A stretch of DNA of 60,310 nucleotides, the filler included, from Sphacelaria rigidula (Eukaryota), in assembly GCA_964200075.2 (NCBI GenBank). It is 3 parts of 3 records of this genome, joined end to end, with 100 filler letters (N's around TTAATTAATTAA, not from the genome) between each part and the next. Parts side by side here need not be neighbours in the genome. Positions count along the whole stretch, not along the records: positions 40,279 to 60,310 come from CAXNAA020000579.1; 2 more parts are not named here. One strand, 5' to 3'. Below the pieces are notes generated by a model. It worked only from the letters and a program-made list of their open reading frames with translations. It did no database searches and had not been told where the DNA came from. This document shows, one piece after another, positions 20,042-60,310 of this stretch. Every line of letters begins with the position of its first letter. Within the stretch, counting starts at the first letter, position 1. Position numbers and translations under genes: made by a program.

Positions 20042-20141
20042 NNNNNNNNNNNNNNNNNNNNNNNNNNNNNNNNNNNNNNNNNNNNTTAATTAATTAANNN
20101 NNNNNNNNNNNNNNNNNNNNNNNNNNNNNNNNNNNNNNNNN
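20042..20141. other. Artificial contig spacer (assembly gap)
   Basis: Exactly 100 bp: N-run, TTAATTAATTAA (stops in all six frames), N-run. Confidence 0.97.
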
Positions 20142-39300: not shown

Positions 39301-39515
39301 TGCAGGCGGCGATCATGAATTCATTTGGGAGGTCGTCAAACGGTCTATCGTCTAGCCCTTCGGTGGGGAGTGGGGTGGTTATTCCGGGCGCAGGAGGCGT
39401 GGGAGTTGCGGGTGCAGGCGGAGCAGGCAGTGGGGATCATGCGGAGGATGTCGGGCGAGGGCAGGGCAAGGGTGTTGGGGGCGTTGCGGGGAGTGGGGGA
39501 TCGTGGTGCCTATAA
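20641..39515 (+). CDS. Six-exon gene for a low-complexity (Gly/Ser/Gln/Ala) protein with a central coiled coil; exons 20641-21026, 31317-32574, 33451-33624, 34116-34790, 35787-36389, 38525-39515
   Basis: All five introns are GT..AG with matching phases (2,0,0,0,0), giving a continuous frame: ...GGHAR|SPLSTP...LELKR|VRQRHR...LQQLQ|DSGFP...QSEA|SAAKG...PGMQ|SGKST...GSWCL*. Heptad segment RLSTLIDQLKDEI...ENKKLHQILQQLQ. The frame switch in exon 6 falls in a poly-G/N low-quality stretch (38740-38920). Confidence 0.8.
23941..24272. repeat. Three tandem ~100-110-bp hairpin (foldback) units in intron 1
   Basis: Unit 1 CCCTTCGACCGCG...GATCTGTTGAATCGG-loop-CCGATTCGACAGATC...CGCGGTCAAAGGG (23941-24049); related units at ~24056-24153 and ~24160-24270 share the TCAGGTG(T)AAA loop. 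Confidence 0.75.
28110..28315. mobile_element. 206-bp hAT-type MITE, copy 2
   Basis: Long near-perfect TIRs (CAAGGGCAGGTCGAGTAGAGTATACTCAATTGCGG) and a perfect 8-bp TSD AAAAACTT (28102-28109 / 28316-28323). Confidence 0.93.
34159..34630 (+). repeat. CAG/CAA trinucleotide tracts encoding poly-Gln (exon 4; another at ~36330-36380)
   Basis: Runs of CAG/CAA in frame with the predicted exons. Confidence 0.9.
34867..35072. mobile_element. 206-bp hAT-type MITE, divergent subfamily (copy 3)
   Basis: TIRs CAAGGGCAGGTCGGGTAGG...CCTTACCCGACCTGCCCTTG; 8-bp flanks gaagactg/gaaggttg (6/8); same length as copies 1 and 2 but a different interior. Confidence 0.85.
35177..35735. mobile_element. ~550-bp dispersed non-coding repeat, copy A (intron 4)
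   Basis: Highly similar to 37816-38345; a ~45-bp direct repeat (CCTGGTCCGGCGA..CCGrCGTGCTCCGTyCCGsCTTTGTAGGGG) occurs at the start and again near the end. Confidence 0.85.
37816..38345. mobile_element. ~530-bp dispersed non-coding repeat, copy B (intron 5)
   Basis: Homologous to copy A in the same orientation; flanked by a ~16-bp direct repeat CCCCTCT(A/G)TGGCGTCG (~37802-37817 and ~38347-38362), consistent with a long TSD. Confidence 0.85.
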
Positions 39516-40178: not shown

Positions 40179-40278
40179 NNNNNNNNNNNNNNNNNNNNNN
40201 NNNNNNNNNNNNNNNNNNNNNNTTAATTAATTAANNNNNNNNNNNNNNNNNNNNNNNNNNNNNNNNNNNNNNNNNNNN
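40179..40278. other. Artificial contig spacer (assembly gap)
   Basis: 100 bp N..TTAATTAATTAA..N, same design as 20042-20141. Confidence 0.97.
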
Positions 40279-41680
40279 CCCCCGTCCCCCGCCCCGAAAA
40301 GGAGGCGTGGTCCATGGGCACACAACAAAAGAAAACAACACAAAAAAACCCCCCCCCCCCCCCCCCCCCTGCGTTCCTTCGCATTGCTCCCATGATCGAT
40401 GGCTATCACCATGGACCAGATCAAAAGAAACCTTTTGAGAGCGTGAATTCGTCCTGCCCCCAGCTCTGGAGGTGAACCTGTTGATCTCCACGGTGGGTAA
40501 TCTGGGCCTTGCATTCATATTTCGGGTCAAACTTATGTCATTGCCCAACAGATAACTCGCCCTGAACGTGGTTATATATTATATATAGATGGGCAAAGCC
40601 AAACAACCTCGGCACACCAGACGGCAAATCGTATATTTTTGCAGAGTTTCGGTGAACGCTAGAAGAGTTGAGAAGAAAAGAGGTCACCTTGCAGCGCGTG
40701 TCAGGGGTGTGGACGTGTATGTGTCGCCTGAAAAGGGAGGGTGTCGCTTGAACGCACGATTTGTTCGTTCAAATGATTTCGTGTTTAATCAAGTGTATCC
40801 ACGTAGAAAAAAAGGAAGCGAGGATGATTTGTCTATAATCGATGAAATTTCGTCGAGCAGCCCGACAAAGTTCGGGGGTGTACCCCCCCGATTCGCATCT
40901 CTAACAGTTCTACCGTCACCCGCATTCACCGTTTTGGCCAAGCGCTTAATACGACGGCGTTTTGTTTTATCTCGTTTGTAATGTTTTCGATGTTCAAATA
41001 GATGATGCAAGCGCGCCGGAAACCAACACTGATGGGTCTTGTACCCAACGTGGTTGACGGAAACACCGTGTGCAAGTAGGCGTGACTGTTGGGGTTGACT
41101 CAACAGGATGTTGATCCCCTCGCATTACCTTCCCGTTGTATGACAGTAACATCAGCTGAAATCTTCCCGCCAACGACGGGTCACCTGAAACGAATAACCA
41201 ACCAGTCGAAAATCGGGTCTGCATGGAGTGAGCCCGTAGATGAAGACGCATCAACCATTGTTTCTCCTGGACTTCAAACGCCACAATCCGACTTCGCCAC
41301 CAGTCGGGACGCACAAACGTGTTCCGTGTAAAGTAGGACTGAATACACATTTCCGAAACTTCCAAAGCTTGGTATCCTCCCTAACAACCCAGTACGTTAG
41401 ATGCGAACGAACTTGACGTATGCAGAAGCGTTTCCCTCATCAATGGAACACGATCACATCATTTGATGCACACGGTCAAAGCTGGTGTACTTTATGTACC
41501 GTCGTGCCTACCACGCACATGGCAAACAGAACTCGTCCAATTTCAACTGCAGTCCGCTGCTTTTCACGTGACTGCAACATTTCTCGTGCCATTTGGACAT
41601 ATCCTGTTCGTCAACCGATTATAAAATGGTCTTACTAATCACATTGTCACTTTTTTCCGTATGATTTAGAGATGGTCGTG

Positions 41681-42139
41681 TCAAAGTTTACTAGTGTCTG
41701 CTTCAGAAATGGTCTCGCGAGAGCTTGTTCCACGGCTAAAGTTGTTTTGGTTCACAGTGAGATACCCCCGCACCTTATTGTCGTTCAGAACATCCTTCTG
41801 TACGGCCGACCGGTTCCGCCGCGGCACATTGCTGTCGTCCACGACAAAGTCCATCGACAACGACTTCTTGAAGTCAATGGGTGTTGGCAGGCAGTGGACA
41901 ACACGCATGATGAGGAAATTGTTCTCAGCACCACTCGCGCACGATACCATCTCCAACGTTTCCTCCACCATTATGGGGCCAATGTTCGAGGGAAGGCTCC
42001 CGCCAGGAGCAGAAAGGGTAACGCCGAAGTCGCTCTTAACAAACGGGGTTTCCCGAGGAGATGCGCTGTCCAGGAGGATCCTCGGCCTGTTTTCAACTGT
42101 GAACGAGGCGGGAAAATCGCAAGCAATGATCGAACACAT
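41681..42139 (-). CDS. ZU5-like domain coding segment, probably the C-terminal part of the LRR-array gene (possibly pseudogenised)
   Basis: FGVTLSAPGGSLP and VVHCLPTPIDFKKSLSMDF match the two ZU5 signature stretches (GVxLxIPxGAL; PVVxCxPxGxxFxKPVxL). GYLTVNQNNFSRG sits where the ZU5 'HFS' motif is expected. Same strand as, and downstream of, the LRR exons; flanking frames contain stops. Confidence 0.6.
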   Translation of the reverse strand: MCSIIACDFPASFTVENRPRILLDSASPRETPFVKSDFGVTLSAPGGSLPSNIGPIMVEETLEMVSCASGAENNFLIMRVVHCLPTPIDFKKSLSMDFVVDDSNVPRRNRSAVQKDVLNDNKVRGYLTVNQNNFSRGTSSRETISEADTSKL

Positions 42140-42661
42140 CGAATGAGAATGCGGCTATGACAGTTGAGTCATACGAGTGATTTTTTCAATACAAAGGGCG
42201 AACTGACTCCAGTCATACAACTAGTTTCTCAAATCGGACCCTCACTGTACTTGCAGGGCCCCCTCCTGATGGAGACACAAGCGAATCAAGCACACAGATA
42301 AACACACTTTTTGCCACCACCCACCACCTGCTCAGTACATGTTACCCGATGCCGGCATGGAGAGTTTTGTGGACTTTCAGACGTGGAACTGATAGCCCCC
42401 AACGCACGTGGTAGCCGCTTTCATGGCATTTTCGATGAGGTTGAGGATTCGGACAGGCACAACGACAACTACCCGATTTGTCCCTCGTACGCCGGCGAGC
42501 GATGTCTCTCATACCCGGCCAAGCGCAACACGGCTTGCATATTGCATGATACATTTTGCAGTGTGTGGTGCAGTACTGTAGCGGGCATTCAGTACATAAA
42601 ATGCTGCACTGGGTCTATCGTGCGACCACGGCTGGACCCATGGATGGTCAGTTAATGTGCG

Positions 42662-42662
<1 letters not shown>

Positions 42663-42697
<35 letters not shown>
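42663..42697. repeat. (CAAT)n microsatellite
   Basis: About 8 tandem CAAT units. Confidence 0.85.
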
Positions 42698-42700
<3 letters not shown>

Positions 42701-43410
42701 TGGGTACTGTTTATTACAGTGCTGCTGCTGAATCGATGTATTCAGTTCTCGCTCGCGGACGCACTGCTAACTATTCCATGACACAAACCCCTACGGTATT
42801 GCTCGAAGGCTTCGTGTACAGATGCATTGCTGTTCTAGTACTACAATAGATACTACGCAGCCATCTCCGAAGAACTCCTCGTTAACCATCACCCGTTTGG
42901 GGCTTCCAACCTGAATAACGGCAAACTTACCGCTATTTTAGTCACATGCCCTGGAAGCAGCATCATGAGGTCTTGCGGCCACATGCCACTCTGTCGAGAG
43001 TCCTACTGAATCAATTGTTTTAATTCCTACTTCGCAACCTGCTGCTGGCGAAGAATTTGTACCGGCGAATATAGAGTCCAGCGTGCGGCCTGACAGCTCT
43101 CCTCCAGATCAAACGAGGCGTCCGGTCGGCGCCCAATGTTTACATTTTGTCTATTGCCACCACCCACACGCCAATATGAAGGATATTTTCGTCTTTCGCG
43201 GCGACTCGACCAAGAGGTACGTGATGAATCAAACTCTCGAAATACAAGACGTGTTACATGCACCTCATATCGCCCACCAGAGGGTACATGAAATATAGAA
43301 TCCTCCATAGCGACGTGACTCATGTAGCGCCAGCAACGAAACCGAGGAATGGCATCATTGCTCGGCCATGGCATCGCGATTCAACAAATATACCCCTCCC
43401 GTCGTCTCAC

Positions 43411-46400
43411 CACTCGGCTGCTTTCCCTCGAGGTTGCTCAGGTTTGAGCCAACGAGCTTTTCTAGTCCCGGCGGAATGGCACCTGTGGTGACGACACGCG
43501 ATAGTTGCGATGTGCGGTGGAATCTCAGGACAGCAACCCACAACACACACCCACGATCTAAGTCCTCTACTCACGCACAGGCAGTAGCGCCGTTTCACAG
43601 ACCGGACGAGGCCGTGGTCTAAAATATCGATCAACAATACGCGTGTTGCATGCACGTCCATGACGACATGACTCATAACCCTACGGCGTCCAGGCACGGT
43701 TTGTTCTCGATCATCGCATTTCACGACATGACCTGTCCCGTGTCTCACCCCTCAGCTGATTCCCTTGGAGATTGAGAGATTCCAGCGAACGGCACTTCCC
43801 CAGCTCCGGCGGAATGACACCTGTGGCGGCGACAAGCGATAGTACAAATGTGTGGTGGTTCTCAGGGGACAAGAAACCACAGCAAGCACGCAAGCTTCAT
43901 GTCCCCTACACACGCCTTGGCAGGACTACTCTTCTACAAGCCGGGCGGCCCTGTGCTCTACCAGGTTCATCAAGCATGCTCGCCAGCACAACGTGCCCGC
44001 ACTGGTGCTCGTGGGAAGGTCTCTCCAAGAGGTACATGAGCTATCGAGTGCTCCAATCACAACACGCGAATGGCGTGCACGTCCACGGCAACGTGACTCA
44101 TAACCATCGGCCGCCCAAGCACGGTTTCGCTTGTCGACCATCGCGCTTCACCACATGACCTGTCCCGCGTCTCACCACTCAGTTGATTCCCCTGAAGATT
44201 GAGGGATCTCATCAAACGGCACTCCCCCAGCTCCGACGGAATGGCACCTATGGCGGAGACACGCGATACAACAAATGTGTAATGGAGGCTCGGGAGAGGA
44301 ACCCACAACTAACACGGAAGCTTCACGTTCCCTACTCCCGCGCTTGGAGAGCTACTCTTGACAACAACCCCGGCAGACCCGTGCTCCACCAGGCCCAGTC
44401 AGCATGCCCGCCGGTACAACGTGCTCGCACTGGTGCTCGTGGCAAGTGCTCTCTACCAGTGCGTCCCGTGTTTCGTTCCCCTACTCTGCAGGCTGCTGCT
44501 CGCTACGAAGGGATACTGGTGGACAGGTAAACGAGCGTGTGACCCGACAGCGCTGCCTCACTTCGAGCCAACGAGGCGACCAGTCCCCACGCAGTGTTGG
44601 CACTCCGACGACTGTCATCACACACACATGCGCACGTGCTTTGACTGTCTACTTCTGTCACGGAGACTGGACCAAGAGGTACATGAGCTATCGAGTCCCC
44701 CGATCACGACACGCGTGTTGCGTGCGCGTCCACGAAGACATGATTCATAACCCCAAAACGACCAGGCACGGTTTCGCTTCTCCACCATCGCGCTTCACCA
44801 CATGACCCGTCCCGCGTCTCACCACTCAGTTGATTCCCCTGAAGATTGACGGACCTAAGCTCACGGCATCTCCCCAGCTCCGGCGGAATGACACCTGTGG
44901 CGGAGACACGCGATACAACAAATGTGTTATGGAGTCTGGGGAGAGGCACCCACAACTGACACGGAAGCTCCACGTTCCCTACCCACGCGCTGGCAGGACA
45001 ACGCTTTCACCAGCCGGGCGGACCCGTGCTCCACCAGGCCCCGTCAGCATGCTCGCCGGTACAACGTGCTCGCACTGGTGCTCGTTGCAAGTGCTCTCTA
45101 CCAGTGCGTCCCGTGTTTCGTTACCCTACTCTGCAGCCCGCTGCTCGCTACGAAGAGATACTGGTGGACAGGTAAACGAGCGTGTGACCCGACAGCGCTG
45201 TCTCACTACGAGCCAACGAGGCGACCAGTCCCCACGCAGTGTTGGCACTGCGACGATTGTCATCACACACACATGCGCACGTGCTTCTATTGTCTACTTC
45301 TGTCACGGAGACTGGACCAAGAGATACATGAGCTATCGAGTCCTCCGATCACGACACGCGTGTTGCGTGTGCGTCCACGAAGACATGATTCATAACCCCA
45401 CACCGTCCAGGCATGGTTTCGCTTCTCGACCATCGCGCTTCACCACATGACCCGTCCCGCGTCTCACCACTCAGTTGATTCCCCTGGAGTTCGACGACTT
45501 CTAGCGAACCGCACTCCCCCAGCTCCGGCGGAATGGCACCTGTGGCGGAGACACGCGATACAACAAATGTGTAATGGAGGCTCCAGAGAGGAACCCACAA
45601 CTAACACGCAAGCTTCACGTTCCCTACCAACGCGCTGGCAGGAAAACGGTTTTGTCAGCCGGGCGGACCCGTGCTCCACCAGGCCCGGTCAGCATGCTCG
45701 CCGGTACAACGTCCTCGCACTGGTGCTCGTTGCAAGTGCTCTCTACCAGTGCGTCCCGTGTTTCGTTCCCCTACTCTGCAGCCTGCTGCTCGCTACGAAG
45801 GGATACTGGTGGACAGGTAAACGAGCGTGTGACCCGACAGCGCTATCTCACTTCGAGCCAACGAGGCGACCAGTTCCCACGCAGTGTTGGCACTCCGACG
45901 ACTGTCATCACACACACATGCGCACGTGCTTTGACTGTCTACTTCTGTCACGGAGACTGGACCAAGAGGTACATGAGCTATCGAGTCCTCCGATCACGAC
46001 ACGTGAATGGCGTGTGCGTCCACGAAGACATGATTCATAACCCCACACCGCCCAAGCACGGTTTCGCTCCTCCACCATCGCGCATCACCACATGACCCGT
46101 CCCGCGTCTCACCACTCAGTTGATTCCCCTGAAGATTGACGGACCTTAGCTCACGGCACTCCCCCAGCTCCGACGGAATGGCACCTGTGGTGGCGACACA
46201 CGATACAACAAATGTGTAATGGAGGCTCGGGAGAGGAACCCACAACTAACACGGAAGCTTTACGCCCCCTACTCACGCGCTTGCAGAGCTACTCTTGACA
46301 ACAACCCGGGCGGACCCGTGCTCTACCAGGCCCAGTCAGCATGCCCGCCGGTACAACGTGCTTGCACTGGTGCTCGTGGCAAGTGCTCTCTACCAGTGTA

Positions 46401-49400
46401 TCCCGTGTTTCGTTCCCCTACTCTGCAGGCCGCTGCTCGCTACGAAGGGATACTGGTGGACAGGTAAACGAGCGTGTGACCCGACAGCGCTATCTCACTT
46501 CGAGCCAACGAGGCGACCAGTTCCCACGCAGTGTTGGCACTTCACCGAATATCACACACACATGCACACGTGCTTCTATTGTCTACTTCCGTCACGGGGA
46601 CTGGACCAAGAGGTACATGAGCTATCGAGTCCTCCGATCACAACAAGCGTGTTGCGTGCGCGTCCGCGCAGCCATAATTCATAACCCGACACTGCACAGG
46701 CACGGTTTCGCTTTTCGACCATCGCGCTTCACCACATGACCCGTCCCGCGTCTCACCCCTTAATTGATTCCCCTGAAGATTGACGGACCTTAGCTTACGG
46801 CACTTCCCCAGCTCCGGCGGAATGGCACCTGTGGCGAAGACACGCGAAGCCATAACTGTGTTATGGAGTCTCGGGAGAGGAACCCACAACTAACACGAAA
46901 CATCCACGTTCCCTACCCACGCGCTGGCAGGGCAACTCTCTACAAGCCGGTCGGACCCGTGCTCCACCAGGCCCAGTCAGCATGCCCGCCGGTACAACGT
47001 GCTCGCACTGGTGCTCGTGGCAAGTGCTCTCTACCAGTGCGTCCCGTGTTCCGTTCCCTCTACTCTGCAGGCTGCTGCTCGCTACGAAGGGATACTGGTG
47101 GACAGGTAAACGAGCGTGTGACCCGACAGCGCTGTCTCACTTCGAGCCAACGAGGCGACCAGTACCCACGCAGTGTTGGCACTCCGCCGACTGTCATCAC
47201 ACACACATGCGCAGGTGCTTCTACTGTCTACTTCTGTCACGGAGACTGGACCAAGAGGTACATGAGCTATCGAGTCCTCCGATCACGACACGCGTGTTGC
47301 GTGCGCCTCCACGAAGACATGATTCATAACCCCACACCGCCCAAGCACGGTTCCGACTCTCGACCATCGCGCTCCACCACATGACCCGTCCCGCGTCTCA
47401 CCACTCAGTTGATTCCCCTGGAGTTCGACGATTTCTAGCGAACCGCACTCCCCCAGCTCCGGCGGAATGACACCTGTGGCAACGACACGCGATACAACGA
47501 ATGTGTCATGGAGTCTCCGGAGAGGAACCCACAACTGACACGGAAGCTCCACGTTCCCTACCAACGCGATGGCAGGACAACTCTTGACAACAACCCGGGC
47601 GGACCCGTGCTCCGCCAGGCCCAGTCAGCATGCCCGCCGGTACAACGTGCTCGCACTGGTGCTCGTGGCAAGTGCTCTCTACCAGTGCGTCCCGTGTTTC
47701 GTTACCCTACTCTGCAGCCTGCTGCTCGCTACGAAGGGATACTGGTGGACAGGTAAACGAGCGTGTGACCCGACAGCGCTGTCTCACTACGAGCCAACGA
47801 GGCGACCAGTCCCCACGCAGTGTTGGCACTCCGCCGACTGTCATCACACACACATGCGCACGTGCTTCTAATGTCTACTTCTGTCACGGAGACTGGACCA
47901 AAAGGTACATGAGCTATCGAGTCCTCCCATCACGACACGCCTGATGCGTGCGCGTCCGTGCAGACATGATTCATAACCCGACACTGCACAGGCCCGGTTT
48001 CGTTTCTCGACCATCGCGCTTCACCACATGACCCGTCCCGCGTCTCACCACTCAGTTGATTGCCCTGGAGTTCGACGATTTCTAGCCAACCGCACTTCCC
48101 CAGCTCCGGCGGAATGGCACCTGTGGCGGAGACACGCGATACAACAAATGTGCAATGGAGTCTCGGGAGAGGAACCCACAACTAACACGCAAGCTACACG
48201 TTCCCTACCAACGCGCTGGCAGGAAAACGGTTTTGTCAGCCGGGCGGACCCGTGCTCCACCAGGCCCGGTCAGCATGCTCGCCGGTACAACGTGCTCGCA
48301 CTGGTGCTCGTGGCAAGTGCTCTCTACCAGTGCGTCCCGTGTTTCGTTCCCCTTCTCATCAGCCTGCTGCTCGCTACGGAGGGATACTGGTGGACAGGTA
48401 ATGAGCGTGTGACCCGACAGCGCTGTCTCACTACGAGCCAACGAGGCGACCAGTCCCCACGCAGTGTTGGCACTCCCACGATTGTCATCACATACACATG
48501 CGCACTTGCTTCAATTGTCTACTTCTGTCACGGAGCCTGGACCAAGAGGTACATGAGCTATCGAGTCCTCCGATCACGACACGCGTGTTCCCTGCGCATC
48601 CGTGAAGCCATGATTTATAACCCCACACCGCCCAAGCACGGTTTCGCTTCTCGACCATCGCGCTTCACCATATGACCCGTCCCGCGTCTCACCACTCAGT
48701 TGATTCCCCTGGAGATTAAAAGACCTAAGCCATCGGCATTTCCCCAGCTCCGGCGGGATGGCACCTGTGGCGGAGACACGCGATACAACAAATGTGTTAT
48801 GGAGTCTCGGGAGAGGAACCCACAGATTACACGTAATTTCCACGTTCCCTACCAACGCGCTGGCAGGACAACTCTCTACAAGCCGGTCGGACCCGTGCTC
48901 CACCAGGCCCAGTCAGCATGCTCGCCGGTACAACGTGCTCGCACTGGTGCTCGTGGCAAGTGCTCTCCACCAGTGGGTCCCGTGTTTCGTTCCCCTACTC
49001 TGCAGCCTGCTGCTCGCTACGAATGGATACTGGTGGACAGGTAAACGAGCGTGTGACCCGACAGCGCTGTCTCACTTCGAGCCAACGAGGCGACCAGTCC
49101 CCACGCAGTGTTGGCACTCCGACGACTGTCATCACACACACATGCGCAGGTGCTTCTATTGTCTACTTCTGTCAGGAAGACAAGACTAACAGGTGCATGA
49201 GCTATCGAGTCCCCCGATCACGACACGCGTGTTGCGTGCGCGTCCACGAGGACATGATTCATAACCCCACCCGCACAGGCACCGTTTCGCTTCTCGACCA
49301 TCGCGCTTCACCACATGACCCGTCCCGCGTCTCACCACTCAGTTGATTGCCCTGGAGATTGACGATTTCTAGCGAACCGCACTTCCCCAGCTCCGGCGGA

Positions 49401-52400
49401 ATGGCACCTGTGGCAGCGACACGCAATGGGGCGGATGTGTGGTGGACACCTCGGGAAAGCAACCCACAACTTACACGCAAGCTCCACGTTCCCTACCCAC
49501 GCGCTGGCAGGACAACTCTTTCACCAGCCGGGCGGACCCGTGCTCCACCAGGCCCAGTCAGCATGCTCGCCGGTACAACGTGCTTGCACTGGTGCTCGTG
49601 GCAAGTGCTCTCTACCAGTGCGTCCCGTGTCTCGTTCCCACAGTCTGCGGCCTGCTGCTCGCTACGAAGGGATACTGGTGGACAGGTAAACGAGCGTGTG
49701 ACCCGACAGCGCTGTTTTACTTCGAGCCAACGAGGCGACCAGTCCCCACGCAGTGTTGGCACTCCGCCGACTGTCATCACACACACATGCGCACGTGCTT
49801 TGACTGTCTACTTCTGTCACGGAGACTGGACAGAAAGGTACATGAGCTTTGGGGTCCTCCGATCACGACACGCGTGGTGCGTGCGCGTCCACGAAGACAT
49901 GATTCATTACCCCACACCACCCAGGCACGGTTTCGCTTCTCGACCATCGCGCTTCACGACATGACTCATCCGCGTCTCACCACTCAGTTGATTCCCCTGG
50001 AGATCGACGGAATGTAGCATAACGCACCCCCCCAGCTCCGGCGGAATGACACCTGTGGCGGAGACACGCTATACAACAAATGTGTTATCGAGTCTCGGGA
50101 GAGGAACCCACAACTTACACGCAAGCTCCACGTTCCCTACCCACGCGCTGGCAGGACAACTCTGTACAAGCCGGGCGGACCCGTGCTTTACCAGGCCCAG
50201 TCAGCAAGCTCGCCGGTACAACGTGCTCGCACTGGTGCTCGTGGCAAGTGCTTTCCACCGGTGCGTCCCATGTTCCGTTCCCCTACTCTGCAGATTGCTG
50301 CTCGCTACGAAGAGATACTGGTGGACAGGTAAACGAGCGTGTGACCCGACAGCGCTGTCTCACTTCGAGCCAACGAGGCGACCAGTCCCCACGCAGTGTT
50401 GGCACTCCGACGACTGTCATCACACACACATGCGCACGTGCTTCTCTTGTCTGCTTCTGTCACGGAGACTGGACCGAGAGGTACACGAGATATCGAGTCC
50501 TCCGATCACGACACGCGTGTTGCGTGCGCGTCCACGAAGACATGATTCATAACCTCAAACTGCCCAGGCATGGTTTCGCTTCTCGACCATCGCGCTTCAC
50601 CACATGACCCGTCCCGCGTCTCACCACTCAGTTGATTCCCCTGAAGTTGGACGATTTCTAGCGAACCGCACTCCCCCAGCTCCGGCGGAATGGCACCTGT
50701 GGCAGCGACACGCGATACAACAAATGTGTTATGGAGTCTCGGGAGAGGAACCCACAACTGACACGCAAGCTCGACGCTCCCCATCCACGCGCTGGCAGGA
50801 CAACTCTGTACAAGCCGGTCGGACCCGTGCTCCACCAGGCCCAGTCAGCATGCCCGCCAGTACAACGTGCTCACATTGGTGCTCCTGGCAAGTGCTTTCT
50901 ACCAGTGCGTCCCGTGTTTCGTTCCCCTACTCTGCAGGCTGCTGCTCGCAACGAATGGATATTGGTGTAAACGAGCGTGTGACCCGACAATGCTGTCTCA
51001 CTTCGAGCCAACGAGGCGACCAGTCCCCACGCAGTGTTGGCACTCCGCCGACTGTCATCACACACACATGCGCATATGCTTCTATTGTCTACTTTTGTCA
51101 CGGAGACTGGACCAAGTGGTACATGAGCTATCGAATCCTCCGATCACGACACGCGTGTTGCGTGCGCGTCCATGATGACATGATTCATAACCGAGTCATC
51201 CTACGATAGGGGGGGTGGGGTGTTTCGGGCCATTCGTTGCTCGAAATTTCGAGTGAGATCGTCGTTGAATGCCGCAACGGTTGTTCGGACGAGCTTCTTG
51301 TGGATCAATAACGCTCATCCATACTGTCTGATACCGATTGGAACCAAATACTAAAGCACCGCAAGTGTGGAAGGATGTCTGACACACTTATGAGCCTTTT
51401 CTTTCTTGCAACCAAATACCCCCCCCTTTCGTAGGATGGCTTAACCCCACACCGCCCAAGCAAGGTTTCGCTTTTCGACCATCGCGCTTCACCACATGAC
51501 CCGTCCCGCGTCCCACCACTCAGTTGATTCCCCTGGAGTTCGACGATTTCTAGCCAACCGCACTTCCCCAGCTCCGGCGGAATGGCACCTGTGACGGAGA
51601 CACGCGATACAACAGATGTGTTATGGGCGTCTCGAGAGAGGAAACCACAACTAACACGCAAGCTACACGTTCCCTACCGACGCGCTGGCAGGACAACTCT
51701 CTACAAGCCGGTCGGACCCGTGCTCCACCAGGCCCAGTCAGCATCCCCGCCGGTACAACGTGCTCGCACTGGTGCTCGTGGCAAGTGCTCTCTACCAGTG
51801 CGTCCCGTGTTTCGTTACCCTACTCTGCAGCCTGCTGCTCGCTACGGAGGGATACTGGTGGACAGGTAAACGAGCGTGTGACCCGACAGCGCTGTCTCAC
51901 TTCGAGCCAACGAGGCGACCAGTCCCCACGCAGTGTTGGCACTCCGCCGACTGTCATCACACACACATGCGAGGGTGCTTCTATTGTCTGCTTCTGTCAC
52001 GGAGACGGGACCAAGAGGTACTAAGCTATCGAGTCCTCCGATCACGACACGCGTGTTGCGTGCGCGTCCGTGAAGCCATGACTCATAACCCACACCGCCC
52101 AAGCACCGTTCCGTTTCTCGACCATCGCGCTTCACCACATGACCCGTCCCGCGTCTCACCACTCAGTTGATTCCCCTGGAGATTGACGGACCTCAGCCAA
52201 CGGCACTCCCCCAGCTCCGGCGGAATGGCACCTGTGGCGGAGACACGCGATACAACAAATGTGTAATGGAGTCTCGGGAGAGAAAACCACAACCAACACG
52301 CAAGCTCCACGTTCCCTACCAACGCGCTGGCAGGACAACTCTCTACAAGCCGGTCGGACCCGTGCTTTACAAGGCCCAGTCAGCATGCCCGCCGGTACAA

Positions 52401-55400
52401 CGTCCTCGCACTGGTGCTCGTGGCAAGTGCTCTCTACCAGTGCGTCCCGTGTTTCGTTACCCTACTCTGCAGCCTGCTGCTCGCTACGAAGAGATACTGG
52501 TGGACAGGTAAACGAGCGTGTGACCCGACAGCGCTGTCTCACATCAAGCCAACGAGGCGACCAGTCCCCACGGAGTGTTGGCACTCCGACGATTGTCATC
52601 ACACACACATGCGCAGGTGCTTCTATTGTCTGCTTCTGTCACAGAGACGGGACCAAGAGGTACATGAGCTATCGAGTCCTCCGATCACGACACGCGTGTT
52701 GAGTGCGCGTCCGTGAAGACACGATTCATAACTCCACACCGCCCAGGCACGGTTTCGCTTCTCGACCATCGCGCTTCATCACATGACCCGTCCCGCGTCT
52801 CACCACTCAGTTGATTCCCCTGGAGATTGACGAATACCAACATAACGCATTTCTCCAGCTCAGGGGGAATGGCACCTGTGGCAGCGACACGAGACAAAAC
52901 AAATGTGTGGTGGGCGCCTTGGGGGAGCAACCCACAACTAACACGAGAGCTCCACGTTTACTACCAACGCGCTGGCAGGACAACTTTCTACAAGCCGGGC
53001 GGACCCGTGCTTCACCAGGCCCAGTCAGCATGCCCGCCGGTACAACGTGCTCGCACTGGTGTTCGTGGCAAGTGCTCTCTACCAGTGCGTCCCGTGTTTC
53101 GTTCCCCTACTCTGCAGCCTGCTGCTCGCTACGAAGGGATACTGGTGGACAGGTAAACGAGCGTGTGACCCGACAGCGCCGTTTCACTTCGAGCCAACGA
53201 GGCGACCGTTCCCCAAGGAGTGTTGGCACTGCGCCGACTGTCATCACACACACATGCGCACGTGCTTCTATTGTCACGGAAACTGGACCAAGAGATACAT
53301 GAGCTATCGAGTCCTCCGATCACGACACGCGTGTTGCGTGCGCCTCCACGAAGACATGACTCATAACCCCACACCGCCCAAGCACGGTTTCGCTTCTCGA
53401 CCATCGCGCTTCATCACATGACCCGTCCCGCGTCTCACCACTCAGTTGATTCCCCTGTAGATTGACGGAATGTAGCTCAACACACTGCCCTAGCTCCGGC
53501 GGAATGGCACCTGTGGCAGCGACACGCGATACAACAAATGTGTTATGGAGTCTCGAGAGAGGAAACCACAACCAACACGCAAGCTCCACGTTGCCTATCC
53601 GCGCGCTGGCAGGACAACTCTCTACAAGCCGGTCGGACCCGTGCTCCACCAGGCCCAGTCAGCATGCCCGCCGGTACAACGTGCTCGCACTGGTGCTCGA
53701 GGCGAATGCTCTCCACCAGTGCGTCCCGTGTTTCGTTCCCCTACTCTGCAGGCTGCTGCTCGCTACGAAGGGATACTGGTGGACAGGTAAACGAGCGTGT
53801 GACCCGACAGCGCTGTCTCACTTCGAGCCAACAAGGCGACCAGTCCCCACGGAATGTTGGCACTCCGCCGATTGTCATCACACACACATGCGCACGTGCT
53901 TCAATTGTCCACTTCAGTCACGGAGACTGGACCAAGAGGTACATGAGCTCTTGAGTCACGACACGCGTGTTGCGTGCGCGTCCACGAGAACATGATTTAT
54001 AACCCCACACCCCCCAGGCACGGTTTCGCTTCTCGACCATCGCGCTTCACCACATGACCCGTCCCGCGTCTCACCACTCAGTTGATTGCCCTGGAGTTCG
54101 ACGATTTCTAGCGAACCGCATTCCCCCAGCTCCGGCGGAATGACACCTGTGGGAACGACACGCGATACAAGGAATGTGTCATGGAGTCTCGGGAGAGGAA
54201 ACCACAACTAACACGCAAGCTCCACGTTGCCTATCCACGCGCTGGCAGGGCAACTCTCTACAAGCCGGGCAGACCCGTGCTTCACCAGGCCCAGTCAGCA
54301 TGCCCGCCGGTACAACGTGCTTGCACTGGTGCTCGTGGCAAGTGCTCTCTACCAGTGCGTCCCGTGTTTCGTTCCCCCTACTCTGCAGCCTGCTGCTCGC
54401 TACGAAGGGATACTGGTGGACAGGTAAACGAGCGTGTGACCCGACAGCGCTGTCTCACTTCGAGCCAACGAGGCGACCAGTCCCCACGCAGTGTTGGCAC
54501 TCCGCCGACTGCCATCACACACACATGCGCGGGTGCTTCTATTGTCTACTTCTGTCACGGAGACTGGACCAAAAAGGTACATGAGCTATCGACTCCCCCG
54601 ATCACGACACGCGTGTTGCGTGCGCGTCCGTGAAGACATGATTCATAACCCCACACCGCCCAAGCACGGTTTCGCTTCTCGACCATCGCGCTTCACCACA
54701 TGACCCGTCCCGCGTCTCACCACTCAGTTGATTCCCCTGGAGATTGACGGACCTTAGCTCACGGCACTTCCTCAGCTCCGGCGGAATGGCACCTGTGGCG
54801 AAGACACGCGATACAACAAATGTGTTATGGAGTCTCGGGAGAGGCACCCACAACCAACACGCAAGCTACACGTTTCCTACCAACGCGCTGGCAGGACAAC
54901 TCTTCTACAAGCCGGTCGGACCCGTGCTCTACCAGGCCCAGTAAGCATGCCCGCCGGTACAACGTGCTCGCACTGGTGCTCGTGGCGAACGCTCTCTACC
55001 AGTGGGTCCCGTGTTTCGTTCCCCTACTCTGCAGCCTGCTGGTCGGTACTTACGGATACTGGTGGACAGGCAAACGAGCGTGTGACCCGACAGCGCTGTC
55101 TCACATCAAGCCAACGAGGCGACCGGTCCCCACGCAGTGTTGGCACTCCACCGATTGTCATCATACACACATGCGCAGGTGCTTCTCTTGTCTACTTCTG
55201 TCACGGAGACTGGACCAAGAGGTACATGAGCTATCGAGTCCCCCGATCACGACACGCGTGTTGCGTGCGCGTCCACGAAGACATGATTCATAACCCCACA
55301 CGCACAGGCACCGTTTCGCTCCTCGACCATCGCGCTTCACCACATGACCCGTCCCGCGTCTCACCACTCAGTTGATTCCCCTGGAGTTCGACGATTTCTA

Positions 55401-56725
55401 GCGAACCGCACTTCCCCAGCTCCGGCGGAATAGCACCTGGGGCAGCGACACGCGATACAACAAATGTGTTGTGGAGTCTCGGGAGAGGAACCCACAACTA
55501 ACACGCAAGCTCCACGTCCCCCATCCACGCGCTGGCAGGACAACTCTCTACAAGCCGGTCGGACCCGTGCTCCACCAGGCCTAGTCAGCATGCCCGCCGG
55601 TACAACGTGCTTGCACTGGTGCTCGTGGCAAGTGCTCTCTACCAGTGCGTCCCGTGTCTCGTTCACCTACTCTGCAGCCTGCTGCTCGCTACGGAGGGAT
55701 ACTGGTGGACAGGTAAACGAGCGTGTGACCCGACAGCGCTGTCTCACTTCGAACTAACGAGGCGACCGGTCCCCACGCAGTGTTGGCACTCCGACGGTTG
55801 TCATCACACACACATGCGCACGTGCTTTGACTGTCTCTTTCTGTCACGGAGACTGGACAAAAAGGTACATGAGCTATCGAGTCCTCCGATCACGACACGC
55901 GTGTTGCGTGCGCGTCCACGAAGACATGATTTATAACCCCACACCACCCAGGCACGGTTTCGCTCCTCGACCATCGCGCTTCACCACATGACCCGTCCCG
56001 CGTCTCACCACTCAGTTGATTCCCTTGAAGATTGACGGACCTTAGCTCACAGCACTCCCCCAGCTCCGGCGGAATGGCCCCTGTGGCGGAGACACGCGAA
56101 GCCATAACTGTGTTATGGAGTCTCGGGAGAGGAAACCACAACTAACACGCAATTTCCACGTTCCCTACCAACGCGCTGGCAGGACAACTCTTCTACAAGC
56201 CGGTCGGACCCGTGCTCCACCAGGCCCAGTCAGCATGCCCGCCGGTACAACGTGCTCGCACTGGTGCTCGTGGCAAGTGCTCTCTACCAGTGCGTCCCGT
56301 GTTTCGTTCCCCTACTCTGCAGCCTGCTGCTCGCTACGAAGGGATACTGGTGGACAGGTAAACGAGCGTGTGCCCCGGAAGCGCTGTCTCACATCAAGCC
56401 AACGAGGCGACCAGTCCCCACGCAGTGTTGGCACTCCGCCGACTGTCATCATACACACATGCACACGTGCTTCCATTGTCTACTTCTGTCACGGAGACTG
56501 GACCAAGAGGTACATGAGCTATCGAGTCCTCCGATCACGACACGCGTGTTGCGTGCGCGTCCACGAAGACATGATTCATAACCCCACACCGCCCAAGCAC
56601 GGTTTCGCTCCTCGACCATCGCGCTTCACCACATGACCCGTCCCGCGTCTCACCACTCAGTTGATTCCCCTGGAGTTCGACGATTTCTAGCGAACCGCAC
56701 TCCCCCAGCTTCGGTGGAATGGCAC
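43411..56725 (-). CDS. LRR domain encoded one repeat per exon: 22 exons of 72 bp, consensus GAIPPELGxCxxLxxVxLQGNQLS
   Basis: Exons at 56654-56725, 56009-56080, 55365-55436, 54721-54792, 54075-54146, 53439-53510, 52804-52875, 52160-52231, 51517-51588, 50625-50696, 49981-50052, 49336-49407, 48693-48764, 48049-48120, 47402-47473, 46757-46828, 46113-46184, 45468-45539, 44823-44894, 44176-44247, 43749-43820 and 43411-43482 (divergent). Each is bounded by YAG| and |GTGAG (GTGGG once), is phase 1/1, stop-free, and fits the 24-aa plant-specific LRR class. No start exon found in the window. Confidence 0.93.
51193..51442. mobile_element. 250-bp MITE inserted in one intron of the LRR array
   Basis: TIRs GAGTCATCCTACGATAGGGGGG / CCCCCCTTTCGTAGGATGGCTT; duplicates AACC (51189-51192 / 51443-51446) of the empty-site consensus TGATTCATAACCCCACACC seen in sister units. 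Confidence 0.92.
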
Positions 56726-57169
56726 CTGTGGCAGCGACACGCGATACAACAAATGTGTTATCGAGTCTCGGGAGAGGAACCCACAACTAACGCGCAAGCT
56801 CCACGTTCCCTACCAACGCGCTGGCAGGACAACTTTCTACAAGCCGGTCGGACCCGTGCTCCACCAGGCCTAGTCAGCATGCCCGCCGGTACAACGTGCT
56901 TGCACTGGTGCTCGTGGCAAGTGCTCTCTACCAGTGCGTCCCGTGTCTCGTTCCCCTACTCTGCAGCCTGCTGCTCGCTACGAATGGATACTGGTGTAAA
57001 CGAGCGTGTGAGACTGGACCCAGAGGAACATGAGCTATCGAGTCCTTCAATCACGACACGCGTGTTGCGTGCACGTCCACGAAGATCTGAGTCATAGCAC
57101 TACGGCGCCCAGACACGGTTTCGCTTCTCGACCATCGCGCTTCACCACATGACCCGTCCCGTGTCTCTC

Positions 57170-57235
57170 CATTCAGTCGATTCCCCTGAAGATTGACGGC
57201 TTTTATCATACTCACTCCCCAAGCCACGTTTGCTC
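57170..57235 (-). pseudogene. Broken 23rd LRR exon at the 5' edge of the array
   Basis: Retains GTCAATCTTCAGGGGAATCGACTGAATG (VNLQGNRLN), but the donor is GAGAG instead of GTGAG and the GAIPPEL half with the acceptor is deleted. Confidence 0.8.
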
Positions 57236-57639
57236 AAGCCGGTGGAACCCGTTGTCTACCAGGCTCATTCAGCATGCCCGCCGGTACAACACACATATAC
57301 ACATCAATGAGGGGACTCATGGGGCCAATTTGCGCAGGTGACGGCTGATACACACGTTATCCGCACTCAGTACCCAACAGCCCCAGGTTACACGGGCAGT
57401 GGGCAACGTACATAACGTGCGTATGAAGTTGGTAGCACCGGCCTCATGGTCGATGACGTACAACGCGAATCAGCGGAGCAGCGTGCACATTTCTAGTTCA
57501 TTGAACACTGCAGTTACATGCTCATGCTGCCTGAAACTTGTGTGCATCGCAGAATAATACGAGTAAAATGTACTAGCGGCAACCAGGTATGTCCAAGTCG
57601 CGACGACGTCCAAGTACGCCCAGTCGGGATGCGTTATTG

Positions 57640-58010
57640 TTTTGGCACTGTGTGTTGCAGGAGGCGCGTTTCCCGTCAGCTCCGAGGCGGTTTACACCCC
57701 CACGATGGCTTAAACGGTGGCTATAAAGTGTTTGGGTGTAGTGCCGGTGGTGTAGTGTCGATGCAGGGCAAATGGGACAAGCGCGGACAGGTATTCCACT
57801 CGCTGAGCTTGGACATGAGCCATGTGTGCTATGCCCAAGTCCAGTCGGGCGGCGGTATTTGTTGGCACTGTGTGCAGCTGGCGCGTTTCACGTCCGCTAT
57901 GAGGCCGTTTGCAACGTGCGATGGCTTGAACGATGGCTACGGACTGTGTGAATGCATATCGAGTTGTGTGGTGTCCATGCAAGTCACATGGAACGAACGC
58001 GGGCAACATG
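57640..58010. repeat. Diverged ~215-bp tandem duplication
   Basis: TGGCACTGTGTG...GCGCGTTTC...CGATGGCTT(A/G)AACG(G/A)TGGCTA...GTGTC(G/C)ATGCA occurs at ~57642-57790 and ~57863-58010. Confidence 0.6.
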
Positions 58011-59086
58011 TGAAATTCGCGGCTAAACCTGGACATGACTTCGTCCGAGTCGCGACTCGGATATGGCTTCATCCTTTCAGCAATGCAGTTGTTTGTCTTG
58101 TTCAATACCTGCTGCCTAGTGACAATCATAGCGAGTACGATATCAATCGGGCACGCGAACAGCACAGGCAGCAACGGATCTTCTCGGCCGTATCATAAAC
58201 CCTTGATGGAAATACTGGCTTGTGTTGTGTGGTACCGTCCTCGAGACAGACCGACTACCGTCGCGCGGACAGCAGTGTATGGCAGAGGTTGCCCCGTGGT
58301 GGGTAGACCACTTGCTTCTGCAGCAGAAGATGAAAAAAGACATGATTTTCAGGGGCTCTTATGCGGCCGGCACAGAATAAAAAGCACAGTCTCTTCTCAA
58401 AGCAGAGAGCTGGAACGAACGAAGGAGAGAGATTGCGTTTGGCACCCAGTTGGGTTAGTCCAAGCATATTCAATCCTGGAACGAGAAGCCAAATCCATAC
58501 ACGTACGTGAGATCGGATCGTATTATCAAGCTCAACATCGCTACTGCTGACGCGGTAGCCTTGCCAGCTCTTAGCGTAGATTAGCTGCAATCCCATGCAC
58601 AAGATATCTCTTCAGCTTATGGGGCCTAAATACTCTGCTAGAGTGTCTTCCACTGATAAATCATGGCACCAGGCTTTCTCCAGCAATATCCTACTTGAAA
58701 CGTGTAGCCTCTGCCCGAGGATCTGGACAAGAGGGCTTCCAACGAGGTACTCCTCCAGTATCACTGGCCTCGTGCTCGACAAGTCCTTGCTTATAACTTG
58801 TTATTATTGCGGGGTGATCCTAAACAGATCACGAGCCAGGCAGCAAGGGGCCACACAGAAAAGGGCCATCAATGCAGGATCCTGTCCCCTGCCACTGCTC
58901 CAATCATGCACGGGATTATACTGAAACCCTACGGCGTGGTATTATTTGGTTACAGCACCGTCAAAGCGTGTTCAAGACAAACGAACGAGCTTGACAACCA
59001 ACCAACAAAAACCAAGGCGAAATCGCATGTGGCAGATCACAAAGAAAAACCATACTCCAACGCTAATTTACTTGTCAGCGCCTCAA

Positions 59087-60310
59087 TCACAGTCTACGCA
59101 GTTCCTTCAAAACAAATTCAGGCGCAGAAGAATGAATCTTGCGAAGAGAATCCCACGTACGTTTTCCAGCACCGAACCCATCCCAACCGACCAAAACAAT
59201 GACATCGTCATTGCCATCTTCAGCGACGTGCACCAAAGCATTCATCCGACATTCACCTTGAGCATACGAATGCTGAAATACATCTTTTACCTTCGCAGTG
59301 ATGTGTAACTGCGAGTCAGCATAGAAACGCAAATGAGCGACGTGGGCCAAGTGAACGGCGCCAGAAACAATGTTCTGCACCGAATACACGGGAGCGGATC
59401 GGCTCCGATCACTCGCCACCGACCTGTCCATGTGGACATCAACTCGGGCGTCACGCCTTGCCTACGAATACGGCCATACAAGACGAAATCTCCCACTGCG
59501 AACTTGGGTAACGCAGCCTAGCCCTGAGCAAGCTTGCGTTTGGTTTCGCAAGACACCGCGGTGGCAGCTTGTACTTCGTTACACAAACCGCACTTGCTCG
59601 TGAACCACGCCTCGAACCTTGTCACGCAACGTATCAGCATCCATAACATCGACGTTCGACTCGCCGCAAGTGACGGAATCCAGCGCGGAGAACTCTGTAC
59701 GCGGCGCACGCCCAAACATCACATAATACGGAGTGTTACGGTACAGTTCACGAAAAAGAAGTGTTCAACGCCCACTGAGCGGCTGGCAAAATATCAACCC
59801 CTTCAGACCCCGGCGGTCTTTGCTCCGACATGATGGACCGCAACGCACGAACAACCTCTTTTCAACATGCCTTCACAAGCACCATTCGACCAGGGGGTAT
59901 ACACAACAGCAAATTGGTGTTGCACCTTGAGCGCGACGCTCAGCTGCGCGATCACTCGATTCTTGAAGTGCGTCGCGGTATCACTAACCCACACACGCCG
60001 CACCCCCAAAGTCTTGCATCGATGGAGCAAGTGCTTAGCCGTAACCTTGACGGTCCAAGCCTCGGTCGGCTCCAACCAAACGGAATTGAACAAAGCATCC
60101 ATGATAACCAAACCATATCGAAAACTAGCCTCGTCAGGCCAACCATTAGCACCTTCAGGTCCGCTACTTCCGACGTACATAAAATCAAAGACCACAACTT
60201 CAGCTGGCGCTGTACCATGCACAGTATCGCCATACGGACGAGGTACCATCGCACCAGCACGAGTGTCTACACAAGGCAAACACTGGCGAACGAACTCGCG
60301 AACGTGGGAA
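59087..60310 (-). mobile_element. Ty3/Gypsy retrotransposon remnant: integrase plus C-terminal chromodomain, frameshifted; runs off the window end
   Basis: CxxC zinc-binding end, integrase core (VVVFDFMYVG, WVSDTATHFKN, YTPWSNGACE), GPY/F-like STWTGRWRV, HVAHLRFY and chromodomain-like VLVGWDGFGAGKRTWDSL. Confidence 0.92.

Follow-up and report, generated by a model that had tools for sequence, protein, structure and literature searches.

A probable brown-algal gene in which 22 cassette exons for leucine-rich repeats are spliced to a ZU5-like exon

The window analysed here is a stretch of 60,310 nucleotides from the genome of Sphacelaria rigidula. It consists of three pieces of ~20 kb joined by spacers at 20042-20141 and 40179-40278, each made up of 44 N, TTAATTAATTAA and 44 N. 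As the stretch is stitched in this way, contiguity of features across the spacers is not to be assumed. The third piece, 40279-60310, carries a tandem array of short exons on the minus strand, each encoding a single leucine-rich repeat (LRR), and both ends of the gene lie off this 20-kb piece. We consider it likely that the array is the middle of a minus-strand brown-algal gene, in which 22 LRR exons (U01 to U22) are spliced in order to give ~528 residues and the last of them is joined to a ZU5-like exon. The features that define this gene are the following.

43411..56725, minus strand: array made up of 22 LRR exons (72 nt each) and the introns between them, from U01 at 56725 to U22 at 43482, defined by exon borders, phase and repeat pattern.
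High ends of exons U01-U11, minus strand: 56725, 56080, 55436, 54792, 54146, 53510, 52875, 52231, 51588, 50696, 50052.
High ends of exons U12-U22, minus strand: 49407, 48764, 48120, 47473, 46828, 46184, 45539, 44894, 44247, 43820, 43482.
43411..43482, minus strand: last LRR exon, degenerate (U22, AIPPGLEKLVGSNLSNLEGKQPS), spliced to U21 upstream and to 42096 downstream in contigs of runs X6, X7 and X8.
42097..43410, minus strand: intron of 1314 nt between the last LRR exon and the ZU5-like exon, defined by a transcript joint.
41774..42096, minus strand: ZU5-like exon of 323 nt, encoding the first ~107 residues of the module, with acceptor CAG and donor GTGCGG, defined by a splice joint, the frame and its relatives.
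40279..41773, minus strand: start of the next intron, in which the spacer is reached before the next exon, according to contigs, letter search and tblastn.

The limits of the array, 43411 and 56725, coincide exactly with the far ends of its last and its first exon; all of the exons lie on the minus strand. All 22 exons measure 72 nt, are bordered by an AG acceptor and a GT donor, and encode one plant-type 24-residue LRR each. The first two bases of each exon complete a codon and its last base opens the next, which is symmetric phase 1 in the usual sense; the same phasing is named 'phase 2' in Teng et al. 2024 (PMC11378527), apparently following the usage of the general feature format. Joined in genomic order, the 22 exons and the exon that follows encode 635 residues with no stop, and the symmetric phase leaves any subset of exons frame-neutral. 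An earlier note on this DNA had described 22 tandem single-LRR cassettes at 43411-56725 that could be skipped or exchanged without a frameshift, and both parts of that description stand.

With the exception of the degenerate U22, the repeats (21 of 22) read x-I-P-x-x-L-G-x-C-x-x-L-x-x-V-x-L-Q-G-N-Q-L-S-G, in which the motif LxxLxLxxNxL is evident. When single exons of 23 residues were scanned with Pfam, one of six gave a match to LRR_4, with an E value of 0.061 and a score of 14 bits, where the cut-off is 27. The pattern fits the 'type I LRR exon' of Ectocarpus, GxxPxxLxxxxxLxxLxLxxNxLx, described by Zambounis et al. 2012 (PMC3341825), and a 72-bp LRR exon structure is shared by four brown algae (PMC11378527). 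As its exons have the pattern already published as type I, the present locus is a known kind of gene, with a domain partner that is probably undescribed.

Contigs from the runs X1, X6, X7 and X8 were compared with positions 41000-60310. The runs X1-X5 are DNA-like and X6-X9 are small; the latter contain 0.07-0.08 of the sampled words, roughly as predicted for exon-only array content (42 words out of ~645 in each unit). Contigs of X6, X7 and X8 contain joints with CT..AC ends on the plus strand, equivalent to GT..AG on the minus strand, exactly at the predicted exon borders.

U21 to U22: X6, X7 and X8.
U22 to 42096, skipping 1314 nt: X6, X7 and X8.
U16 to U17: X6 and X8.
U06 to U07: X8.
U04 to U05: X8, at low depth.

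None of the exon joints is present in X1, where all 30 bins are covered. Four joints can be assigned (U06 to U07, U16 to U17, U21 to U22, and U22 to the next exon), and all four are in genomic order. The joints support that the gene is transcribed and spliced at the predicted borders.

Downstream of the array, exon 42096..41774 carries the frame of U22 on for 108 codons. Over 41774-42096, contigs of 1821-1880 nt show 0 other letters, and they extend ~1350 nt further. The first 30 letters past the exon read IFIKDEGGPW, which aligns with ICSRQSKDDPW and ILTRQDETDCW at the same point of related proteins. This 30-letter continuation does not occur in the window at up to 3 mismatches, and a tblastn search of the window with 31 relatives recovers no more of the module than its first ~105 residues. 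The rest is missing because the piece ends at 40279, 1.5 kb downstream. The 1314-nt intron contains a perfect (CAAT)x8.8 microsatellite at 42663-42697, where reads appear cut and the bin depth is inflated.

The downstream exon belongs to a small group of proteins. A HMMER scan of 1.84 billion representatives returned 22 relatives at E<=0.001, of which 7 reach E<=1e-10, and a second search added 9. The two relatives that are assigned to a species are brown-algal, one from Ectocarpus sp. 12 and one from Scytosiphon promiscuus, and each is recorded as an unnamed protein product. The only Pfam family that recurs in the group is ZU5 (PF00791), found in five of 23 members at E<=1; its best match, in relative P0021, has an E value of 9.4e-05 and 23.1 bits against a cut-off of 21. 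An Atlas feature search with residues 85-330 of relative P0003 gave ZU5/UPA clusters at 0.95, 0.94 and 0.94 and a FIIND cluster at 0.91, on a scale where shuffled proteins score 0.95 once per hundred, and the ten best named matches all fall within the ZU5/UPA/FIIND clan.

Fold comparison points in the same direction. When a model of P0003 was compared with 48,161 chains (VIA-align), the first match was the FIIND of rat NLRP1 (Z 6.1, root-mean-square deviation 4.2, 129 residues aligned), the ZU5 domain of human NLRP1 was second (Z 6.0) and CARD8 was fourth (Z 5.4). Ankyrin ZU5 domains took ranks 5, 10 and 11 (Z 5.1 and 4.9 among them), and UNC5b rank 49. The model of the window exon itself (107 residues), with a mean predicted local distance difference test (pLDDT) score of 76, matched 26 chains at Z>=2, of which 7 are ZU5, the top one being ankyrin ZU5A-ZU5B at Z 3.1. 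The indications from Pfam, from the language model and from the fold are weak but concordant in pointing to a ZU5/FIIND-like downstream module, and the case rests on the agreement of these three weak methods and on none of them singly.

The relatives also indicate what may follow. Four of them, of 422-503 residues, span the module and continue into a UPA-like region and a low-complexity tail. The motif HF[S/T] is found in all 13 relatives that reach the region concerned, at residues 210-212 in P0003; the corresponding part of this gene lies off the window. The alignment with NLRP1 pairs chain residues 1084..1212 with residues 52..211 of the P0003 model, and self-cleavage of human NLRP1 falls between F1212 and S1213. 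PIDD1 self-cleaves at HFS motifs. After HF[S/T] the relatives have a beta-rich segment, a Ser/Pro-rich tail and a conserved C-terminus of ~50 residues of no known family, which is a candidate effector or interaction segment. Pfam assigns no family to the C-terminal parts of the relatives, and that region of the P0003 model has a pLDDT <50. In relatives P0023-P0031 and P0012 the ~50-residue segment reads ..MTKVLPGRRRLTLL..VNRKIKIE.NARALETYAMMLADFG.., again with no Pfam match and with low model confidence.

The repeating unit of the array comprises one exon and one intron. Direct-repeat families of 18-20 copies each, found by a repeat search, span 44.0-57.3 kb with start-to-start spacings of mostly 634-647 bp; the array escaped Tandem Repeats Finder, whose periods go no higher than 500. 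The unit length of ~645 bp given in the earlier note holds for units 1-19 (635-647 bp) except unit 9, which measures 892 bp because of a 255-bp insertion; it fails for units 20 and 21, which have short introns and measure 427 and 338 bp. Units 1-19 show an overall identity of 86-95%, and their introns differ pairwise by 0.088 on average (range 0.045-0.135). The introns had been called near-identical and the locus young and homogeneous; the first does not agree with these differences, and the second is overstated for units that differ by ~9%. No two exons of the array are identical. Two further features belong to it.

51191..51445, strand not assigned: insertion of 255 bp in the intron of unit 9, resembling a miniature inverted-repeat transposable element, with terminal inverted repeats of ~19 nt, defined by alignment to unit 8.
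56726..57290, minus strand: decayed relic at the 5' edge of the array, comprising a half exon, an internally deleted intron and another 56-nt piece of intron that reaches 57290.

The insertion has a contig depth of 49,000-94,000 in X1 against ~60-90 in single-copy pieces, roughly a thousandfold, and contigs of X6-X8 depart from the window sequence at 51194, within it. The 5' edge element is a dead, decayed relic: its half exon, 57200..57170, lacks an acceptor and its donor is altered to GA.

Variation within the unit is concentrated in the exon. The least conserved 24-nt block is exon nt 25-48, with a per-column pairwise identity of 0.70 against 0.91 in the introns, and the most conserved block is the first 24 nt of the intron (0.98). 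Among units 1-19, repeat positions 8, 10, 11, 13, 14 and 16 vary, and positions 2, 3, 6, 9, 12 and 17-22 are invariant in 19 of 19. Positions 13, 14 and 16 are x positions of LxxLxLxxN, the strand-forming core. Position 9 is Cys in every one of these units. In plant-type LRRs this position is usually Leu. The framework codons (1-7 and 17-23) have a ratio of nonsynonymous to synonymous divergence (dN/dS) of 0.16 (dN 0.029, dS 0.175), which implies purifying selection on these codons and so constraint on the exons at the protein level. The core codons (8-16) have a dN/dS of 1.16 (dN 0.405, dS 0.350, both ~4 times the intron difference of 0.088). This ratio does not clearly exceed 1; as dS is raised too, the long upkeep of old types would explain it just as well as positive selection, of which it is no proof.

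Two core types occur in irregular order among units 1-19, nine being GSLEIVEL-like and ten RELRSVNL-like. The ratio of distances between and within core types is 2.18 for exon nt 25-48 and 1.75 for exon nt 49-72, and it stays at 0.93-1.05 in exon nt 1-24 and in all intron bins, those covering the 49 nt that precede and the 48 nt that follow the exon among them. From this we infer that the core types predate the last mixing of the introns, that recombination or short-tract conversion has uncoupled cores from introns, and that selection has preserved the diversity of the cores. Each of the two core types has units with Trp at position 11 (8 and 13 in one, 9 and 14 in the other), which requires recurrent change or very short conversion tracts.

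Several observations weigh against the reading of a single gene with 22 ordered LRR exons and a ZU5-like partner. That the core dN/dS is not clearly above 1 is one of them. On the transcript side, that X6-X9 are RNA is our guess, and X6, X7 and X8 come from one study. The transcript-like contigs contain an exon end, joined to the U18 acceptor (45540), that is absent from the window, and one contig joint reads U10-like and then U09-like (50625/51587). With such misfit junctions, some of the RNA signal of the array may stem from paralogues or another strain; unusual splicing could also account for the junctions. No start codon, signal sequence or 3' end is visible in the window.

On the side of the module, the 107 residues of the window's own exon match no Pfam family, and its Atlas score is just 0.76. 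The P0003 model, built on a 20-row alignment, is poor, with a mean pLDDT of 48; GAIN domains rank among the ZU5 chains in the structural search, and every structural Z is below ~8, the level at which a match stands out. Foldseek against the PDB, with the P0003 and window exon models, gave nothing at E<=0.001, and PDB sequence and profile searches gave 0 matches or 2 irrelevant ones. The fetched relatives carry no LRR. A word-indexed search with the 107-residue exon and P0003 as queries, which is weak evidence, found no predicted protein of at least 806 residues that joins LRRs to the module. Nor did scanning metagenome contigs with the peptide of the exon turn up a relative.

One alternative, in keeping with the frame-neutral cassettes and proposed before for brown algae, is an actively diversifying receptor, in which exons would be combined by splicing, as in DSCAM, or by somatic recombination, as in lamprey VLRs; we regard it as unlikely. 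Alternative LRR exon use is described for two Ectocarpus ROCO genes (PMC11378527), and among the listed joints of the array are some that appear to skip exons, U01 to U05 (X7 and X8) and U04 to U08 (X8), as well as the out-of-order U10-like to U09-like joint. The skipping joints have a shorter side of 20 nt. Ten exons end in the same 20 nt, and 5 share the opening 20 nt of U05. We therefore rejected U01 to U05 and U04 to U08 as evidence of skipping, since adjacent splicing fits them equally, and the four assignable joints follow the genome. According to PMC11378527, neither somatically recombined ROCO loci nor a recombinase has been reported from brown algae.

Nor were spare cassettes, inverted or intronic, found in the array. 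LRR-like frames are absent from the plus strand, from the introns and from elsewhere in the window, the truncated 57200..57170 being the sole relic. LRR exons, whether whole or decayed, that lie within introns or on the other strand are the published sign of exon shuffling. This sign is lacking here, and the uncoupling of exon cores from introns is a different one. The two introns that were folded are no stabler than shuffled sequences (z -0.38 and +0.35), and the idea of structured introns or docking sites was dropped on these values. Rfam at gathering thresholds has no match over 40279-60310. The ordered joints, the ambiguous skipping joints and the absence of opposite-strand relics lend no support to the probably still active diversification that the earlier note had proposed, or to combinatorial exon use.

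We also think it quite improbable that the locus is an orphan or decaying LRR-only 'reservoir', with a near-identical paralogue elsewhere as the source of the spliced RNA. Loci that consist of LRRs alone, and whose exons shuffle, have been published as possible reservoirs (PMC11378527), the 5' edge of the array is decayed and adjoins a high-copy retroelement, and the misfit junctions would be explained. Against this, splice sites and an open frame are kept in 22 of 22 exons with a framework dN/dS of 0.16, and the contig over U21, U22 and the 323-nt exon has 0 other letters. The depth of X1 is alike (57-88) over 41000-42641, 42704-43826 and the unique parts of the array, so that there is no sign of a second identical copy.

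A similarly low probability attaches to the number and order of units being an assembly artefact of a long tandem repeat. The array occupies 13.9 kb of the 20-kb piece, short-read contigs are unable to span it, the best DNA run may be the source sample, and the window is stitched from pieces. All units are nevertheless distinct, with differences of ~5-14% that assemblers can resolve, and the joints U06 to U07, U16 to U17, U21 to U22 and U22 to the next exon match the assembled order.

An LRR-ROCO gene (an LRR-ROC-COR GTPase) would share the exon type and repeat architecture of the Ectocarpus ROCO genes, and a 3' end beyond the window leaves room for a distant ROC-COR, but it is very improbable here, as the last LRR exon is spliced straight to the ZU5-like exon where ROCOs have a linker before the Roc domain, Pfam found no Roc, COR, kinase or NB-ARC in the 10 flanking open reading frames (ORFs) and 10 relatives scanned, the four relatives of 422-503 residues continue to a UPA-like region and low-complexity tail and not to a GTPase, and a motif scan found no P-loop within 40279-60310. 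The likeness to Ectocarpus LRR genes seen in the earlier note therefore holds for the one-LRR-per-72-bp-exon kind; membership of the LRR-ROCO or NB-ARC-TPR families is not borne out, given the splicing of U22 to the ZU5-like exon.

The likely reading thus remains a gene with 22 LRR exons spliced in order and joined to a ZU5-like exon. In Ectocarpus, 46 of 164 loci with type I exons are neither ROCO nor kinase (PMC3341825), and the present locus falls among loci of this sort; it may be that the gene is listed, without a name, in supplementary table 1 of that paper. In common with the Ectocarpus type I LRR exon genes it has 72-nt exons, 24-residue repeats, symmetric phase, variable strand positions and a brown-algal host. 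It differs from the Ectocarpus LRR-ROCO genes in that no ROC-COR was found and the repeats join a ZU5-like module, and from the type I loci in its 22 repeats in an uninterrupted same-strand array with ~90% conserved introns, and in that inverted or intronic relic exons were not found except at the 5' edge (PMC3341825).

Brown-algal ROCO genes have alternatively spliced LRR exons and up to 49 LRRs, in Ec-08_002960 (PMC11378527). The downstream domain is different here, and the skipping joints are ambiguous. Of the four sites reported as positively selected in kelp ROCOs (PMC11378527), 14 and 16 are variable in our array, whereas 18 and 19 are fixed as Q and G in 19 of 19 units.

A second comparison is with animal proteins. 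The FIIND sensors NLRP1 and CARD8 are known, and PIDD1 has LRRs, then ZU5-UPA, then a death-fold domain. As in NLRP1, CARD8 and PIDD1, the LRRs of our gene lie directly N-terminal of a ZU5-like domain, and the best matches of the P0003 model are the NLRP1 FIIND, the NLRP1 ZU5 and CARD8. In contrast to them, the sequence likeness is at the edge of detection, and no NACHT, CARD, PYD or death domain was detected. The cleavage motif of this type, HF[S/T], is seen in the algal relatives at a part of the protein that this gene encodes off the window, and self-cleavage is putative.

Cassette-based receptor diversity is also found in lamprey VLR genes and arthropod DSCAM. Our array shares with them modular repeat cassettes whose combination leaves the frame intact. 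Here, by contrast, the germline gene is complete across the array and spliced in order, and neither flanking banks of silent cassettes nor mutually exclusive exon clusters were found, nor docking or selector RNA structures. DSCAM is also cited in the brown-algal ROCO study (PMC11378527).

A scan upstream of the array for an LRRNT-like first exon gave no convincing candidate, and transcript-like contigs do not cover 57100-57743. Upstream of the array lies ~0.6 kb of low-copy sequence and then a high-copy element that runs off the window.

59806-60309, minus strand: ORF with an integrase core (Pfam rve, E 1.3e-4, below the cut-off), running off the window.

The high-copy repeat covers ~57950-60310 and contains, by eye, a GDFV..W.G motif at ~59300-59500, typical of integrase C-termini. 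It is probably a Ty3/Gypsy-type element oriented as the gene. In the other pieces of the window, a run of long ORFs at 8388-11090 on the plus strand resembles a retrotransposon gag-pol by eye (e.g. KKYVMMVKDDFTRY). An open frame of 366 residues at 38415-39515 on the plus strand is very Gly-rich and lies in a region of 56-58% GC, with 10 N at 38841-38850 breaking it; possibly this is a coding exon of low complexity that belongs to a neighbouring piece.

The evolution of the locus can be outlined in conditional terms. The array would most likely have grown by germline unequal crossing-over between ~645-bp units, and its introns may have been mixed or homogenised through recombination or gene conversion. 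The GSLEIVEL and RELRSVNL core types and their variants would persist at positions predicted to line the concave, ligand-binding face of the solenoid. The product would most likely be a cytosolic binding or sensor protein in which the repeat cores set specificity and the ZU5-like module gives the output. By analogy, the gene may have a role in immunity.

The cassette-exon architecture of LRR genes, with its proposed part in candidate receptors, is already published, so that by itself the array is just a further example. What is new and most useful is that a cassette array of 22 repeats appears to be spliced to a ZU5/FIIND-like module. In a full-text literature that is thin on subscription journals, we found no publication pairing ZU5 with Ectocarpus or a brown alga, and among the four publications combining FIIND and algae none, judged by title, is on algal proteins. 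A ZU5-like partner of type I LRR exons thus appears to be absent from print.

The locus is, moreover, a clean case of the upkeep of repeat diversity, in which two old core types are kept amid introns that have been mixed. The published candidates for pathogen sensing in brown algae are LRR-ROCO and NB-ARC-TPR proteins; if an LRR protein were to signal by way of a ZU5/FIIND-like module, it would be a third, mechanistically different class beside these, and the LRR-ZU5 arrangement of animal cell-death sensors would be extended to stramenopiles. A bolder reading, to which we give a low probability, is that brown algae have a family of cytosolic sensors built from a fast-changing LRR solenoid of exon cassettes, a self-cleaving, FIIND-like ZU5-UPA with a conserved HF[S/T], and a short conserved C-terminal effector segment. 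If this is true, a 'cleave and release' switch in the style of NLRP1, CARD8 and PIDD1 would exist outside animals, with exon-cassette variation of its binding surface.

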